Shown here one piece after another: positions 1-6,025 of a stretch of DNA of 13,471 nt (its first letter is position 1; each line of letters begins with the position of its first letter). The position numbers were made by a program, and so were the translations under genes. The DNA is from Promethearchaeota archaeon Loki_b31. Its GTDB lineage: Archaea > Asgardarchaeota > Lokiarchaeia > Sigyniarchaeales > SOKP01. The stretch is from positions 1-13,471 of the forward strand of contig NJBI01000077.1 in NCBI GenBank assembly GCA_005222975.1. Direction: 5' to 3'. The notes under the pieces were generated by a model, which was given only the letters and a program-made list of their open reading frames with translations, was not told where the DNA came from and did no database searches.

Positions 1-1012
1 AAAAGTCATTATCTCTTGTAAAATTTAAAACTTCTTCAAATGTGGGAATTTGTATGCCCCTGTAATTGTCTCCGTCTTCTTTTGAAATACGACCAAAAGC
101 TAAAGCCCCGTATGGATCTTTGTCCGCAAACCAACTACCAGCGTCTAATTGTCTGAGTTCAGAAAGCGTGAATGTTTCAGCGCGATCGTTCTTACGATTT
201 GGAAAAATATCCTCTACATTAGTGGTTCGAGTTAGAGTATCATCATGCAACAAAAATAATTCTCCGTCAACAGAAATTCTTATGTCGACTTCCCAACCTA
301 CAGCCCCGTGTTCTACCGCTAATTCTCCCGCTACGATAGTGTCTTCTGGGGCTAAATGCGATGCACCTCTATGCGCTGTTATGTTGGGTTTGGGAGGTAG
401 ATCGCCGAAAATCACATTTGAGGGGATAAACAATAGCGGGGATGCGAAAGCAAAAAAATATCCCGTAAGTAAGAGTCCTAAAATAATTTTTGACTTTATT
501 TCTTCATTTAATATCCTATTTGATAAATGATTTTTCCACTGTGGGATTGATTTTATCAAAGGATATAAGCCCAAAATAAGTAAGAGCGAAAGTGGTATTG
601 TTAAAAATATACTATAAAATTCAATAACTTGAGGAATTAATCGGGAGTATTGTTCTAAAGAGGATAATAATAGTGCGAATAGACTTGAATATATGAACAT
701 TAGAACTATTGGAAAAATTTTGTTTAGGATACAAGGTTTAATTTCGTTATTTTTTTTAATATTCCTAAGATGCACATGAAGAATCGCAGCTCCATAAATC
801 AACGGAAGTAATACGATCACAACAATTATAAATACGAGATTTATATCAAAACCAATATAATCAGAAACAATTAAATTAATATCTCCCCAATATACATGAA
901 AAATCAGCATTATCAACGTTAAAACAACCATGTTTATTATTAATGCCAAATCAAGGAGCAACCATTTTTTTCCTTTTCTTCTTAGAAACGAGTTGATATC
1001 CATTTTTACCAT
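1..1012 (-). CDS. Multi-pass membrane glycerophosphodiester phosphodiesterase (GDPD), GDE2/3/6-like architecture; 3' end truncated by the window edge
   Basis: Translated by hand: open frame from ATG 1012 (alternative ATG 1003) to the window edge, 337 codons with no stop. MVKMDINSFLRRKGKKW is followed by five hydrophobic segments, then DLPPKPNITAHRGASHLAPEDT...GWEVDIRISVDGELFLLHDDTLTRTTNV...LRQLDAGSWF...IPTFEEVL. These contain the GDPD motifs HRG, E-x-D, HD and IPT-x-EE. Confidence 0.93.
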   Translation of the reverse strand, partial: MVKMDINSFLRRKGKKWLLLDLALIINMVVLTLIMLIFHVYWGDINLIVSDYIGFDINLVFIIVVIVLLPLIYGAAILHVHLRNIKKNNEIKPCILNKIFPIVLMFIYSSLFALLLSSLEQYSRLIPQVIEFYSIFLTIPLSLLLILGLYPLIKSIPQWKNHLSNRILNEEIKSKIILGLLLTGYFFAFASPLLFIPSNVIFGDLPPKPNITAHRGASHLAPEDTIVAGELAVEHGAVGWEVDIRISVDGELFLLHDDTLTRTTNVEDIFPNRKNDRAETFTLSELRQLDAGSWFADKDPYGALAFGRISKEDGDNYRGIQIPTFEEVLNFTRDNDF

Positions 1013-1265: not shown

Positions 1266-1682
1266 ATGTATTGTTCTAAATGTGGTCTAGAAATACTTGA
1301 TGATGCAAAATTTTGTGGTTTTTGTGGAGAACCTACTGATCCCTTAACTAGCCGTCAAACTCAACCAACTCAACCAACTCAGCCAACACCAATACCCTTT
1401 CAAGGAACTTCAGTTACCCCACCAAGATCATCGAGTAATACAGGTAGAATTATTGCAGCTGTTTTTATAGTTGGAATCCTATTGTTTATTTTTGGAACAC
1501 AAATGGTAAACACAATGCCCAGTACAGGAATAACGATATTTGTAGTAGGGGCTATTGTAATTATTTGTATAGGATGTAGTGTATGTAGCCCTGGAAGACG
1601 CCGAAGAGGTTATGGCGGAGGCGGTTGCGGCGATTGCGGTGGCTGCGATGGTTGCGGTGATTGCGGAGGTTGTGATTGCTAG
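1266..1682 (+). CDS. Zinc-ribbon membrane protein with Pro/Gln/Thr linker, two TM helices and a Gly/Cys/Asp-rich C-terminal tail
   Basis: N-terminal YCSKCG...AKFCGFCG zinc ribbon; low-complexity linker; hydrophobic IIAAVFIVGILLFIFG and GITIFVVGAIVIICIGC; RRRR; tail GGGGCGDCGGCDGCGDCGGCDC*. Confidence 0.88.
   Translation: MYCSKCGLEILDDAKFCGFCGEPTDPLTSRQTQPTQPTQPTPIPFQGTSVTPPRSSSNTGRIIAAVFIVGILLFIFGTQMVNTMPSTGITIFVVGAIVIICIGCSVCSPGRRRRGYGGGGCGDCGGCDGCGDCGGCDC
1359..1391 (+). repeat. 9-bp coding tandem repeat (ACTCAACCA, about 3.5 copies) encoding TQP repeats
   Basis: actcaacca actcaacca actcagcca acacca read directly from the sequence. Confidence 0.85.
1623..1676 (+). repeat. 27-bp coding tandem duplication encoding (GCGDCGGCD)x2
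   Basis: ggttgcggcgattgcggtggctgcgat / ggttgcggtgattgcggaggttgtgat; the four differences are all synonymous third positions. Confidence 0.85.
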
Positions 1683-1778
1683 AGCTCCCGTTCTTGCAAT
1701 CCATTTGTTTCAATTAATAAGGACTAATGCACAATTTAATGATCATAAAATTTTACATAATAGAACTAGAATAGAAAG

Positions 1779-2270
1779 ATGCATCACCAAAATGATGATC
1801 TTCAAAAGGATAAAAAAGTAATCCATTGGTTAGCACATCATAATCCAAAACGCGACGATTTCGATGATCATGTATTTTACATATTTAACTATGCTATTTG
1901 TATAGGATGTTTTGCTTTTGTTTTGGGTGCTGCTTTTGCATTAATAATAGGCAATGTATTTTATTATTATATTGTAAATTCCATTAGTTTGCCTACATTT
2001 CTCATGATTTTTTTAGTTTGCTGGACACCCTCAATTTTCCAATATACAATTCAAATTGCGGGAAAAAAATCACTTAAAAATCGAACAGTTAAATTTATAT
2101 GTCGTGTTCTTTATCCAATTGGCAGCATTTTATTAATATTCAAATCTCCACTATGGGGATTTGTTATTTCAATTCCTGCTGGTTATTTGATAATAATTAT
2201 TAGAAATAAAAAGAATAAAACTTTAATCTCACAACGCAAGCTAAGAAAAAAAGAAATAGAGCATGCTTAA
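1779..2270 (+). CDS. Integral membrane protein with HH...H...CxxC motif (DUF2085-like, putative metal-binding)
   Basis: LAHHNPKRDDFDDHVFYIFNYAICIGC resembles the DUF2085 pattern CHQ..ERSF...CARC.G; 3-4 hydrophobic segments follow, then a basic tail. The ORF is well supported; the family call is tentative. Confidence 0.7.
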   Translation: MHHQNDDLQKDKKVIHWLAHHNPKRDDFDDHVFYIFNYAICIGCFAFVLGAAFALIIGNVFYYYIVNSISLPTFLMIFLVCWTPSIFQYTIQIAGKKSLKNRTVKFICRVLYPIGSILLIFKSPLWGFVISIPAGYLIIIIRNKKNKTLISQRKLRKKEIEHA

Positions 2271-2318: not shown

Positions 2319-4487
2319 TTAGTCGTAATCCTTTATGAAGTGCACTTCTTTGGTAGATCTTTTAAGATACCCTAAATAGCAAGCTTGATTAAAATGAGCA
2401 TAAAATTTCTTTTCAATTATATCTTCTTCTTCAGCAAATTCTTTAAAATCAGAAAGAGACATTTTCCCGTCTACGCTATAAGTTTTAGCAATTCTTATTA
2501 ACGTTTTTACGTTATGATTTAAATAAATTTTTCTTTCTGTCATTTTCTTATTTTTTTTTTTTTCTTCTTGATTTCCTTTTAATTTTAATATAGAAGTTTT
2601 CAATTTCAATTTATCCAAACCTATTACATCGGAATAAAAAGTTACACCAGAATCTTTTAATTTTTTAAACTCATTGCTTTGGACGAAATTATCAAGTTCT
2701 GAAATGATTTCTTCAATGGAACGATTTGCAAGAAGTTCTTTTTCTCTTTTACGCCGTTCTTTATAATTTTTAATTAAATCTAATTCTGAAATTTTATTAG
2801 AAACTACCTTAAAGCATATCTGTTCTCGGTTAACTACATCACATAAATCCAATTGTTTTGAATCGGATAGTACCGAATTCATAGCCATTTCTTTTCGCTC
2901 GGCGGCTTTGTAAAAGGGGATGTCTATAGTCCCTCTAGCTATTAACAAATAGCACCTTCCAGGGGCGTGTCGTCCGGTTCTACCTCGTCTTTGAATTAAC
3001 CTTATCTCAGAAGGTACTGGCTCGTAAAAGATAATAGCGTCGATATTTGGAATATCAAGCCCTTCTTCTGCAACACTTGTAGCCACAAGAATGTCTATCG
3101 CACCAGCTTTAAACTGTTTTATTATTTCTCCTTGCTGATATTGTGAAAAACCTATATCATTTATCTTGGTTGACTGACCTATAAATTTTTCTACACTCAA
3201 TCGAGTTCCAAAGCGTTCCTTTAGTTTTACTTTCAATAATTCTGCCATTTCTCGGTACTGAGTAAAAACTATGATTTTATTATTAAGAAATTCTTCGATT
3301 TCTTCAGTTATAATTGAAAATAACTTTTCAATTTTAGAATGTAAGTAATTATCACGGTTGTCCTGCTCAAAAATGTTTTTAATGAACTTATAGTGATCGG
3401 AATTAATAATTCTCTTAGCTGAAAGAATGTCATGACCAGATTTATATTCTAATTTTTCTAAAAATGTTTCAAATAACGAGATATTCTGAGATTCTAGCAA
3501 ATCTTTCCCATGCAATAAAGAAATACAGCTTGAACTGTAAGAATAAATCGATTCGATATTGAGCGAATTTTCTTTTACTAAATCTATGATTCGTGGAGAT
3601 TGAAAATAAAGAGCATTTTGGTACTCTTCTTCTGATAACTCGGGTAAATAGCCATTATTATACCTTAGAGAGAGCGTTAAATCTCGCGATATTCCTAAGA
3701 AATCCAACTTAGAGTAATAACGCTTATTGGGTGGAATTAATTTTTTTTCGATAAAGAATCTTAGAAATTTTTCAAATAAGTTATACCAAATCGCACTTAA
3801 CTCTAAAACTTTAATAGGCAAATCGACAAATTCTAAATACATGTCAATATCGTAAATATACTGTTTTACATCTTTATCTTCGTAGGTTTTAAATATAACA
3901 TTCTCAATAAACAAATTATCGCACAATTGTTGAATGTGAAAATAACTTTTTCCTGGAGATGCAGTTAGGCCTAAAACAAGCGGGTCTTTACACGTATTAA
4001 GATATTCGGTTGAAATAAAACAATAGGCGTAATTTCCTCTCGTTCTGTGTGCTTCGTCGAAAATTATTAGAGAAACATGCTTCAAATCGTATCGACCCCT
4101 TTCTACATCGTTTTTTATTACTTGAGGAGTCGATACAATAATTTTAGAATTGTTGAAAAGTAAAATTCTCTTTTCTGGCGAAATCTTGCCTGTAAATGAA
4201 GTAATTAAATTAGAATCAATATTTAAAAAGGCTTCACATGAAGCTTTATGTTGCGAAACTAAAGGTCTAGTTGGGGCAAGAATAATGATCTTTGATTTTG
4301 AATATTTTTCTAGAGCTTTACCTATAAGTAAAATCCCTATAATTGTTTTTCCCAAGCCAGTTGGTAATACTACTAACGAATTTCTTCCTATACACTTTTT
4401 AATAATATTATTTTGGTATTGTCGATAAACAACTCTATTCTTTTTTAAGAAAGGTTCGTTAAAATATCCAGATACTTCACTTTGCAA
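2319..4487 (-). CDS. hef: Hef/FANCM/Mph1-family SF2 DEAH-box helicase lacking an ERCC4 nuclease domain
   Basis: Motifs LPTGLGKT (I), LAPTRPLVSQH (Ia), STPQ (Ib), DEAH (II), LTASPG (III), IVFTQYR (IV), FIGQ, ATSVAEEGLDIP (V), SEIRLIQRRGRTGR (VI). TTG start, so the exact start is uncertain. Confidence 0.92.
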   Translation of the reverse strand: MQSEVSGYFNEPFLKKNRVVYRQYQNNIIKKCIGRNSLVVLPTGLGKTIIGILLIGKALEKYSKSKIIILAPTRPLVSQHKASCEAFLNIDSNLITSFTGKISPEKRILLFNNSKIIVSTPQVIKNDVERGRYDLKHVSLIIFDEAHRTRGNYAYCFISTEYLNTCKDPLVLGLTASPGKSYFHIQQLCDNLFIENVIFKTYEDKDVKQYIYDIDMYLEFVDLPIKVLELSAIWYNLFEKFLRFFIEKKLIPPNKRYYSKLDFLGISRDLTLSLRYNNGYLPELSEEEYQNALYFQSPRIIDLVKENSLNIESIYSYSSSCISLLHGKDLLESQNISLFETFLEKLEYKSGHDILSAKRIINSDHYKFIKNIFEQDNRDNYLHSKIEKLFSIITEEIEEFLNNKIIVFTQYREMAELLKVKLKERFGTRLSVEKFIGQSTKINDIGFSQYQQGEIIKQFKAGAIDILVATSVAEEGLDIPNIDAIIFYEPVPSEIRLIQRRGRTGRHAPGRCYLLIARGTIDIPFYKAAERKEMAMNSVLSDSKQLDLCDVVNREQICFKVVSNKISELDLIKNYKERRKREKELLANRSIEEIISELDNFVQSNEFKKLKDSGVTFYSDVIGLDKLKLKTSILKLKGNQEEKKKNKKMTERKIYLNHNVKTLIRIAKTYSVDGKMSLSDFKEFAEEEDIIEKKFYAHFNQACYLGYLKRSTKEVHFIKDYD

Positions 4488-4607: not shown

Positions 4608-6025
4608 ATGATTGAACAAAAAAACACATTATTTGAGGAAAAAGTACCAACGCGCTCCAAATTTGCATATGGAGGAGCAGTTTTCGCCAACGGAATACTT
4701 TCAGGTTTAGGATTAGGACCAATCACATACTATTACAATATAACATTGGGTTTAAGCGGATATTTACTAGGTTTGGCATGGATGATATTTATCGATGGAA
4801 CGCAATTAACGATCCATTATTTGGATTCTTGGAAGACCGTACTAAATCAAAGAAATATGGACGTAGAATCCCATACATTCGATTTGGGGCGCCAGTTTAT
4901 TCAATATTGTTTATGTTTTGTTGGTTCCCCCTTGTTGACATAAACAACGATGTAGCACTGTTTTTCAACTTTTTAATTATTCTTTATGCTTTTGATACGA
5001 TTTATACGATAATTGGTCTTATCACATATTCGTTACCGGCAGAAATGGCAATATCATCTAAAGCTCGAGCAGGAATAATGATTTTCAGCTCAATTTTTAG
5101 CGGTTTAGCACTTCTAATCACTTTTTTACTACCTACTCTATTGTTAACGGGCGAATCTTCGCCACCTGTTGATGTTTTCTTAACAGCTATGGTAATTATT
5201 GGTATAGCTTGTGGTATTATTTTGTTTATTAGTAGTTATTACCTAAAGGAAAATAAATATACGCAGCTTGAAGAACCGTTAGGATATTGGACTAGCTTGA
5301 TTGAAACTTTTAAAAACAAATCGTTTTTAATTTTTGAAGTCTCAAATTTCTGCTTCACGATTGCACAATACATTCTTACGACTTCTGTGTTTTATTATAT
5401 AGGTTTCGTTTTAATGGTTGAGGGAATATTATCGATGGTGCCATTACTTATATTTTTTGTCGTTATTTTTGCGTTCACTGTCGTTTACAACAAAATTTTA
5501 GGAAAGTACGAATTAAAAAAAGTGTACTTTTTAATATTGTTAATGACGGGGTTAAGCTTCATAGTGTTCTTCTTTATAGGATGGAAGTTTATTTCTGCTA
5601 TACTCGGAATGGTTCTTTTAGGAATTGGTTTTTCTGGATATTTCATGACTGGACAATTAATGATGGCTGATGTTATTGATTACGACGAGATACGCACGAA
5701 AAAGCGTCGCGAAACGAGTTATTCTGGGGTCAACGCGTTATTAACTAAGCCTGCTGTATCAATTGCCCCTTGGCTTTTCCTGACAATAATCGCGGTTTTT
5801 GGATTTGATAACGAAGCAGCAACTCAAACACCAGACGCCCAATTGGGAATAATGATTGGTTTTACAATTATACCAGCGGTACTTATTTTAATCGCTGCTC
5901 TTGTTATAAAATTCTTCCCTTTAAGCGGTCCTAAATGGAAAGAACAGAAAATGGAGCTACAAAGAATTCACGCGGAAAAAGAAAAAGCCTATTTAGAGCA
6001 TCTTAAAAAGGAAGGTAAGATTTAA
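4608..6025 (+). pseudogene. GPH/MelB-family (MFS_2) glycoside:cation symporter interrupted by a 1-bp deletion near 4794-4795 (sequencing error or recent frameshift)
   Basis: ORF 4608 gives the GPH N-terminus (SKFAYG...YYYNITLGLSGYLLGLAWMIFI); the other frame continues WNAINDPLFGFLEDRTKSKKYGRRIPYI and later MMADVIDYDEIRTKKRRETSYSG. The junction reads ATC GA TGG; adding one base gives a single 472-aa protein. Confidence 0.88.

Follow-up and report, generated by a model that had tools for sequence, protein, structure and literature searches.

Whether the six-helix surface phosphodiesterases GDE2, GDE3 and GDE6 (GDPD5, GDPD2 and GDPD4) have full-length counterparts in prokaryotes, and how such genes would relate to those of eukaryotes, is the question raised by one end of a lokiarchaeal contig. 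These enzymes, studied as vertebrate surface enzymes in relation to neuronal differentiation, neurodegeneration and uPAR shedding, display five transmembrane (TM) segments followed by an extracellular GDPD domain and a sixth TM, with both termini inside the cell (PMC7033719, PMC5576486). The window analyzed here (the whole stretch of 13,471 nucleotides) is the entire contig C56 of the genome of Promethearchaeota archaeon Loki_b31 (3.5 Mb, 92% complete), and an initial annotation had placed at its start a gene for a protein of this kind. The claimed ORF is real: it runs on the minus strand from position 1012 to 2, encodes 337 aa and stays open at the contig end. Its Pfam GDPD match covers residues 214-336 (E 9e-19), and all the features that had been described, namely the basic RRKGKK motif (residues 11-16), five hydropathy peaks, the GDPD domain and the sequons NIT (210) and NFT (330), were located.

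The rest of the gene lies on another contig of the same assembly. The first 127 bases of the window are the last 127 of contig C98, an exact and unique overlap of a type that is also present at other contig ends of the assembly, and the joined sequence encodes a 514-aa protein in which five TMs precede the GDPD barrel, with the sixth TM and a basic tail, KKRKE, after it (Table 1). The sixth TM, which the initial annotation had proposed to seek by extending the contig, is present at residues ~481-507; hydropathy of the joined protein and an AF2 model of its 97%-identical relative both show the six-helix layout. The C98 part adds four more sequons, for a total of six in the 514-aa protein, every one of them in the barrel. 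In support of the join, a database protein of 514 aa (P0003) is 97% identical to the joined product, and in strain ABR02 (L003) the upstream and downstream neighbours follow in the same order on one contig. The gene is single-copy in Loki_b31, its GC content (0.33) matches that of the genome (0.315), and the closest named relatives of its product belong to Promethearchaeota/Lokiarchaeia. A scan for sigma-70 signals upstream of the gene, with models ill-suited to archaea, gave nothing.

Table 1. Features of the six-TM GDE-family gene of Loki_b31 (window coordinates unless another contig is named; residues refer to the 514-aa protein)
Feature	Position	Strand	Remarks
5' 337 codons of the 514-aa six-TM GDE-family (predicted) phosphodiesterase	2..1012	-	ORF and overlap join
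3' rest of the gene	contig C98 31980->31321 (L001:9342-10001)	-	rest of barrel (D342, K344, H350, W456), TM6 ~481-507, tail KKRKE
Alternative start, Met4			start of many 511-aa relatives
Basic cytoplasmic N-terminal motif RRKGKK, residues 11-16	965..982	-	
TM1, ~residues 17-40	893..964	-	W17 nearly invariant in Asgard
Outer loop 1, residues 41-56	845..892	-	acidic, helical; conserved N46, G54; gap-free against loop 1 of animal GDE2/3
TM2, ~residues 57-80	773..844	-	Y73 also in eukaryotes
TM3, ~residues 97-118	659..724	-	K98 also in eukaryotes (HK motif)
TM4, ~residues 130-153	554..625	-	
TM5, ~residues 174-196	425..493	-	P192 family-wide
N-terminal half of the (predicted) extracellular GDPD TIM barrel, residues 205-337	2..400	-	
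Catalytic H214-R215-G	365..373	-	equivalent to mammalian GDE3 H229/R230 and GDE2 H233
PEDT variant of PENT motif (N224D)	338..349	-	same in a subset of close relatives
Metal ligands E241, D243	284..292	-	role per established GDPD chemistry
Second catalytic histidine, H256-D257	242..247	-	
Sequon N330-F-T	17..25	-	in 53% of Asgard rows

The Loki_b31 protein is a full-length homologue within the six-TM GDE subfamily. The AF2 model of P0003 (pLDDT 92.7) matches that of a chordate protein over residues 5-514, with 491 residues matched and a TM score of 0.82, against 0.50 for the bacterial PF10110 membrane GDPDs (membrane GlpQ); its matches in the PDB cover the barrel only. When a profile of the Asgard barrel plus TM6 was compared with proteins longer than 532 aa, animal GDPD2, GDPD5 and GDPD4 (together with a few unnamed proteins) came right after eight prokaryotic or unnamed matches, with E values from 1e-59 to 1e-75. 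For the TM region alone, hhalign of the Asgard and eukaryote profiles gave a probability of 98.8% (E 1e-16, 188 columns), with scores of about zero for shuffles, and a eukaryote-only TM profile ranked the window ORF first among 3,870 ORFs of the genome (33 bits, E 1e-8; the next at 10.8). In pairwise BLAST the TM region had no significant match to turtle GDPD5 (E 0.22), so that profiles are needed, and the gap-free register originally drawn between the first membrane loop and GDE2 recurs with this turtle protein from the database (H39/H, N46/N, G54/G). The subfamily is also marked by D342 (E in 11 of 12 outgroup rows), H350, PPxxHPY, W456, P477 and, within TM6, Y486 and W490, and in GDPD phylogenies the protein falls outside the ordinary GlpQ/UgpQ proteins, in a six-TM clade with GDPD5/2/4 that is supported at 100/100 (95-98 SH-aLRT with other outgroup sets).

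An ordinary membrane-anchored GlpQ/UgpQ protein that came to resemble GDE2/3/6 by convergence would fit the insignificant BLAST result for the TM region, as well as the behaviour of the two barrel motifs that had been quoted as matching GDE2 (HDxxLxRTTNV..FP and LDAGSWF..DP), which are not diagnostic and occur in soluble bacterial outgroup GDPDs too. This explanation is scarcely credible, and is ruled out by the full-length fold match, the TM-only profile matches far over shuffles, the common TM6 and barrel signatures and the fully supported clade apart from ordinary GDPDs. Soluble GlpQ/UgpQ proteins (PDB 2pz0, 5t91) and PF10110 membrane GDPDs are alike in their TIM barrel and HRG/ExD/HD core, but they have no homologous TM bundle (TM score 0.40-0.50 by query), carry E and not D at 342, lack PPxxHPY, W456, P477 and TM6, and are separated by a long, fully supported branch. 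The PF10110 membrane domain has no match in the Loki_b31 protein, and NCBIfam scores lie far under the cut-offs. As for the PENT motif, it is present in 111 of 112 animal matches, and PEDT is found in the window protein and 11 of 106 Asgard relatives. When the TM bundle was modelled by itself, its PDB matches were only generic helical bundles, the best of them (Z 9.8) a designed protein, so it offers no functional lead and does not indicate a new fold.

Compared with the vertebrate enzymes, the archaeal protein is equally related to the three paralogues (about 29-34% identity) and alike in the 5+1 TM layout, the catalytic His/Arg, the subfamily signatures and a sequon-rich barrel. It differs in keeping K344 and D340 without W450, in a host genome where no GPI machinery was detected, and in its very short cytoplasmic tails, so that the long trafficking tail at the C-terminus of GDE2 has no counterpart in it. 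PDB searches returned no solved six-TM GDE structure, which makes the compact prokaryotic members of ~500 aa candidate structural proxies.

Both in the Loki_b31 protein and family-wide, K and R abound at the N-terminus, in loops 2 and 4 and in the C-tail, whereas loops 1 and 3 are acidic (K+R of 4.5/4.7/6.3 in the inner loops and 0.3/0.9 in the outer ones). Since the barrel comes after TM5, these positive-inside charges support a topology in which it would face the outside of the cell, with both termini inside, and the computed sequon enrichment of the family agrees with the outward-facing catalytic domain that had been proposed. Asgard barrels carry 4.25 sequons versus 2.26 expected and animal barrels 5.6 versus 1.75, in contrast to those of Anaerolineae, which are depleted (0.53 versus 1.11). 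The six sequons of the window protein are themselves an excess (p 0.037) that its cytoplasmic neighbours do not show, and STT3/AglB is encoded in the Loki_b31 genome. The GDPD barrel is probably N-glycosylated. The two sequons first pointed out, NIT and NFT, are both present, but the former (N210) is not a conserved sequon and the latter (N330) occurs in 53% of Asgard rows.

In GDPD chemistry, two histidines act as general acid and base, and a glutamate and two aspartates bind a divalent metal. All six catalytic and metal residues of the Loki_b31 protein are intact (H214, R215, E241, D243, H256 and D342), as the initial annotation had stated for the catalytic set. H214/R215 align with H229/R230 of mammalian GDE3 and H233 of GDE2, whose mutation kills activity (PMC5576486, PMC11314389, PMC7033719). 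However, at three conserved positions the protein does not follow the consensus of the family (N224D, P351L and N421K), so the activity of this copy may differ; P351L and N421K are found throughout the Loki_b31 sub-clade, and N224D in part of it. Such changes, together with the more consensus-like paralogue that close relatives often have as a tandem neighbour (L004, G071, G162), would be in keeping with a diverged paralogue of altered or reduced activity. This is unlikely, given that the catalytic set is complete and that P351L and N421K are common to more than 20 intact relatives of 82-97% identity, which points to selection and not to decay.

The genome tallies, which scored only few candidates per genome and may be too low, found a patchy distribution among Asgard archaea, where 38 of 301 genomes carry the gene, from 13 of 70 genera. 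Named carriers come from Promethe-/Loki- (including P. syntrophicum), Hel-, Hermod-, Thor-, Heimdall- and Hodarchaeota, and in the Heimdall class 16 of 83 genomes have the gene, although they represent just 2 of 18 genera. In bacteria, single-protein queries detected the gene in 2 of 201 Chloroflexota genomes, and the tally for Anaerolineales was 8 of 301, each count including the seed genome. There is a large metagenomic bacterial family whose named members are Anaerolineae/Chloroflexi, and some bacterial six-TM GDPD genes are located on clearly bacterial contigs (RuvB, QueA, PTS). The 'Nanopelagicaceae' sequence L004 (DATKTW010000045.1, an actinobacterial MAG) was rejected as a bacterial carrier; beside its 91%-identical copy lie a paralogue in tandem and a Hef helicase resembling that of the window, and the contig, read as probably mis-binned Asgard DNA, was left out of the bacterial count. 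Among the best 150 matches listed, the eukaryotic carriers are animals, the ichthyosporean Chromosphaera, the Archamoebae Mastigamoeba and Pelomyxa, and protist contigs, and the eukaryotic copies form one clade. In Mastigamoeba balamuthi, three neighbouring genes (P0372, P0422, P0482) carry GDE-family domains; one contains three GDPD segments in a row and another is joined to a region annotated as pumilio, which are possible gene-model artefacts. Apparently intronless six-TM GDE genes of unidentified protists were also seen on two gene-dense eukaryotic metagenome contigs (L086 and L087), with genes for MAP65, Rad21 and ceramidases, and for YL1 and PH.

The six-TM GDPDs of Anaerolineales (Chloroflexota; P0242, P0391) have the same 5+1 architecture and signatures, and of all single BLAST scores against the window protein theirs are the highest (about 217-219 bits). 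They differ in forming a clade of their own (100/100), in their sequon-depleted barrel, in their rarity and, in many cases, in a shorter TM region (that of the largest group has ~162 aa). No description of them was found in the literature searched, and full-text searches, with most subscription papers outside their scope, returned none of any prokaryotic six-TM GDE; some JGI auto-annotations already name Asgard copies as the GDPD2 enzyme. The entire six-TM GDE architecture, which occurs across Asgard archaea, in Anaerolineales and also in eukaryotes other than animals, is a prokaryotic invention, and the subfamily is probably of old prokaryotic origin, with its greatest diversity in Asgard.

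How the eukaryotic genes arose from this subfamily depends on the tree. In an ingroup tree of 91 rows (LG+C20 PMSF), where many Asgard-like rows are metagenomic proteins placed by the tree itself, three clans were recovered, Asgard-like (100), eukaryotes (97) and bacteria (100). A rooted tree of 61 rows, with 12 soluble GDPDs as the outgroup, resolved the six-TM clade (100/100), Asgard (98/89), eukaryotes (99/93) and a group of eukaryotes plus bacteria (99/92). The best trees are therefore of the form (Asgard,(eukaryotes,bacteria)), a topology that is retained when long branches are removed and two other outgroup sets are used (89 and 73), and in a barrel-only FastTree the Asgard rows are paraphyletic around the same eukaryote-bacteria group. 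The narrow Anaerolineales branch would accordingly be the best-supported sister of the monophyletic eukaryote clade, and an Asgard ancestry of the eukaryotic copies appears somewhat disfavoured by these sequence comparisons. The initial annotation had suggested an unlisted eukaryotic-signature protein; its Asgard-eukaryote full-length homology stands, but absence from bacteria does not, since rare full-length members occur in Anaerolineales genomes and on bacterial contigs, with the eukaryotes as their sister group, and the Asgard distribution is patchy.

An acquisition by eukaryotes from an Anaerolineae-like bacterium, itself linked to Asgard by an older transfer, would make the Asgard protein a cousin and not an ancestor of the eukaryotic ones. 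This scenario, plausible though somewhat less likely than not, agrees with the eukaryote-bacteria clade of all unconstrained trees, with the derived barrel residues common to both (I340, F/Y341 and W450, where Asgard keeps an outgroup-like D/N340 and K344) and with the hhalign scores of the barrel (661 for bacteria-eukaryote versus 615 for Asgard-eukaryote). The eukaryotes are, however, sister to the bacterial clade and not nested inside it, so the direction of transfer is not shown; moreover, the bacterial range is very narrow, the root rests on a long outgroup branch of GDPDs without a membrane part, and a grouping of Asgard with bacteria is compatible with the AU tests (0.20 and 0.11). Vertical inheritance from Asgard to eukaryotes, as in a true signature protein, would instead require that the Anaerolineales copies were transferred from stem eukaryotes or from an Asgard lineage missing in the sampling. 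The spread of the family over Loki/Promethe, Hel, Hermod, Thor and Heimdall lineages, the few Chloroflexota and Anaerolineales carriers, and the single eukaryote clade that includes Archamoebae and an ichthyosporean would all fit, as would the membrane parts, where Asgard is more eukaryote-like than bacteria (hhalign 106 versus 52 for TM1-5 and 42 versus 24 for TM6). The grouping of Asgard with eukaryotes is borderline in the AU tests, not being rejected in the multi-tree ones (0.075 and 0.058) and having 0.034 in a two-tree test, whereas the Heimdall genus g40 with eukaryotes is rejected (0.002 and 0.003) and g40 with eukaryotes and bacteria gave 0.07 and 0.033 (IQ-TREE). With the bacteria as sister of eukaryotes in the best trees, the Asgard rows in a clade of their own, the derived barrel residues outside Asgard and the scarcity of carrier genera in the Heimdall class, vertical descent is doubtful, although far from negligible. 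In any case, the barrel and membrane-part signals conflict and the outgroup has no membrane part; the homology to the six-TM GDE subfamily is firm, whereas Asgard ancestry is a possible but somewhat disfavoured reading.

As regards function, GDE3 is an ecto-enzyme that hydrolyses glycerophosphoinositol and lyso-PI, and also GPI anchors (PMC11314389), and GDE2 frees choline from glycerophosphocholine (PMC7033719). The Loki_b31 genome encodes an inositol-1-phosphate synthase, three CDP-alcohol phosphotransferases and three PIG-L-family deacetylases. Sugar-transporter or glycosidase genes recur beside the gene, as MFS_2 in a Heimdall genus, GH2 (L006), GH42/PTS (L083) and MFS_2 plus GH4 in the window; no conserved operon appeared across 33 loci, so these neighbour hints are weak and lineage-specific. 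From these three sources we infer that the protein is probably a phosphodiesterase that faces outward and cuts (lyso)lipid head groups or glycerophosphodiesters, for scavenging or remodelling. The explanation preferred as a whole, with a rough probability of 0.62, is an intact six-TM ecto-GDE, with the barrel outside, that would cleave membrane-inserted or membrane-adjacent phosphodiesters without being a dedicated sheddase. The five-helix bundle and the C-terminal sixth helix would hold the barrel at the outside of the cell membrane, where H214 and H256 would serve as general acid/base and E241, D243 and D342 would bind the divalent metal. The substrate cut there might be a (lyso)phospholipid head group or a free glycerophosphodiester, with inositol-type head groups as the leading guess. 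The cell would then scavenge the freed polyol or phosphate, or else remodel its surface lipids in this way. Archaeal lipids are built on ether-linked G1P, which a GDE-type site may or may not accept, and this counts against the preferred explanation.

A more specific role, in which the enzyme would shed Asgard surface proteins from a GPI-like lipid anchor and be a functional forerunner of GDE2/GDE3 shedding, would agree with the predicted ecto-topology and the catalytic set of GDE2/3, and with a genome that makes inositol phosphate and has PIG-L-family deacetylases; proteins of the latter family are, however, common in bacteria. Searches of the 92%-complete genome found no matches to Peptidase C13 (GPI8), Gaa1, PIG-M, PIGA, PIG-V or PIG-B, which are weak negatives, since four of these models were also silent in every control genome. 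The bacterial members presumably work without GPI. On the other hand, a preprint gives Asgard origins to components of GPI synthesis and to the transamidase (PMC12338589), which leaves room for an anchor-cleaving role. Such a role is nevertheless very unlikely for this protein, which is probably not a dedicated protein-anchor sheddase, and it would be a long shot that the family both came from the Asgard ancestor of eukaryotes and already cut inositol-lipid anchors or head groups at the Asgard surface; if it did, the phospholipase-driven shedding of surface proteins, related in animals to Notch and Wnt development, would predate eukaryotes. A cultured carrier, Promethearchaeum syntrophicum (P0115), makes the pre-eukaryotic substrate directly approachable.

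Several observations concern the neighbouring genes. Divergent from the GDE gene, a 138-aa protein (window 1266-1682, plus strand) carries a zinc ribbon (PF13240) at its N-terminus, along with PTQ repeats, a pair of hydrophobic segments and an RRRR patch, and in its Gly/Cys/Asp tail every third residue is Cys; its gene is syntenic in L003 and missing beside the gene in L004. It is followed by a 163-aa membrane protein with a His-rich N-terminus (1779-2270, plus strand), conserved in L003 and with no Pfam or NCBIfam match. A three-gene module of the GDE gene with window 1266-2270 was considered and rejected, as it is syntenic in one close relative only (L003) and missing beside the gene in L004. 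Further along, a Hef/FANCM-like helicase (DEAD and Helicase_C; 2319-4487, minus strand) has no ERCC4 nuclease match in Pfam, and the MFS_2 sugar-transporter gene (4608-6025, plus strand) is apparently split by a frameshift near 4780-4940, where a 111-aa N-terminal ORF overlaps one of 415 aa, both matching full-length homologues of ~460 aa. On the C98 side, a 1,470-aa coiled-coil protein with a C-terminal TM (L001:4911-9323, plus strand), syntenic in L003, is encoded by a convergent gene that ends 19 bp from the GDE stop, and at L001:69-881 (plus strand) a 270-aa protein has an N-terminus that is longin/roadblock-like by eye, followed by several TMs.
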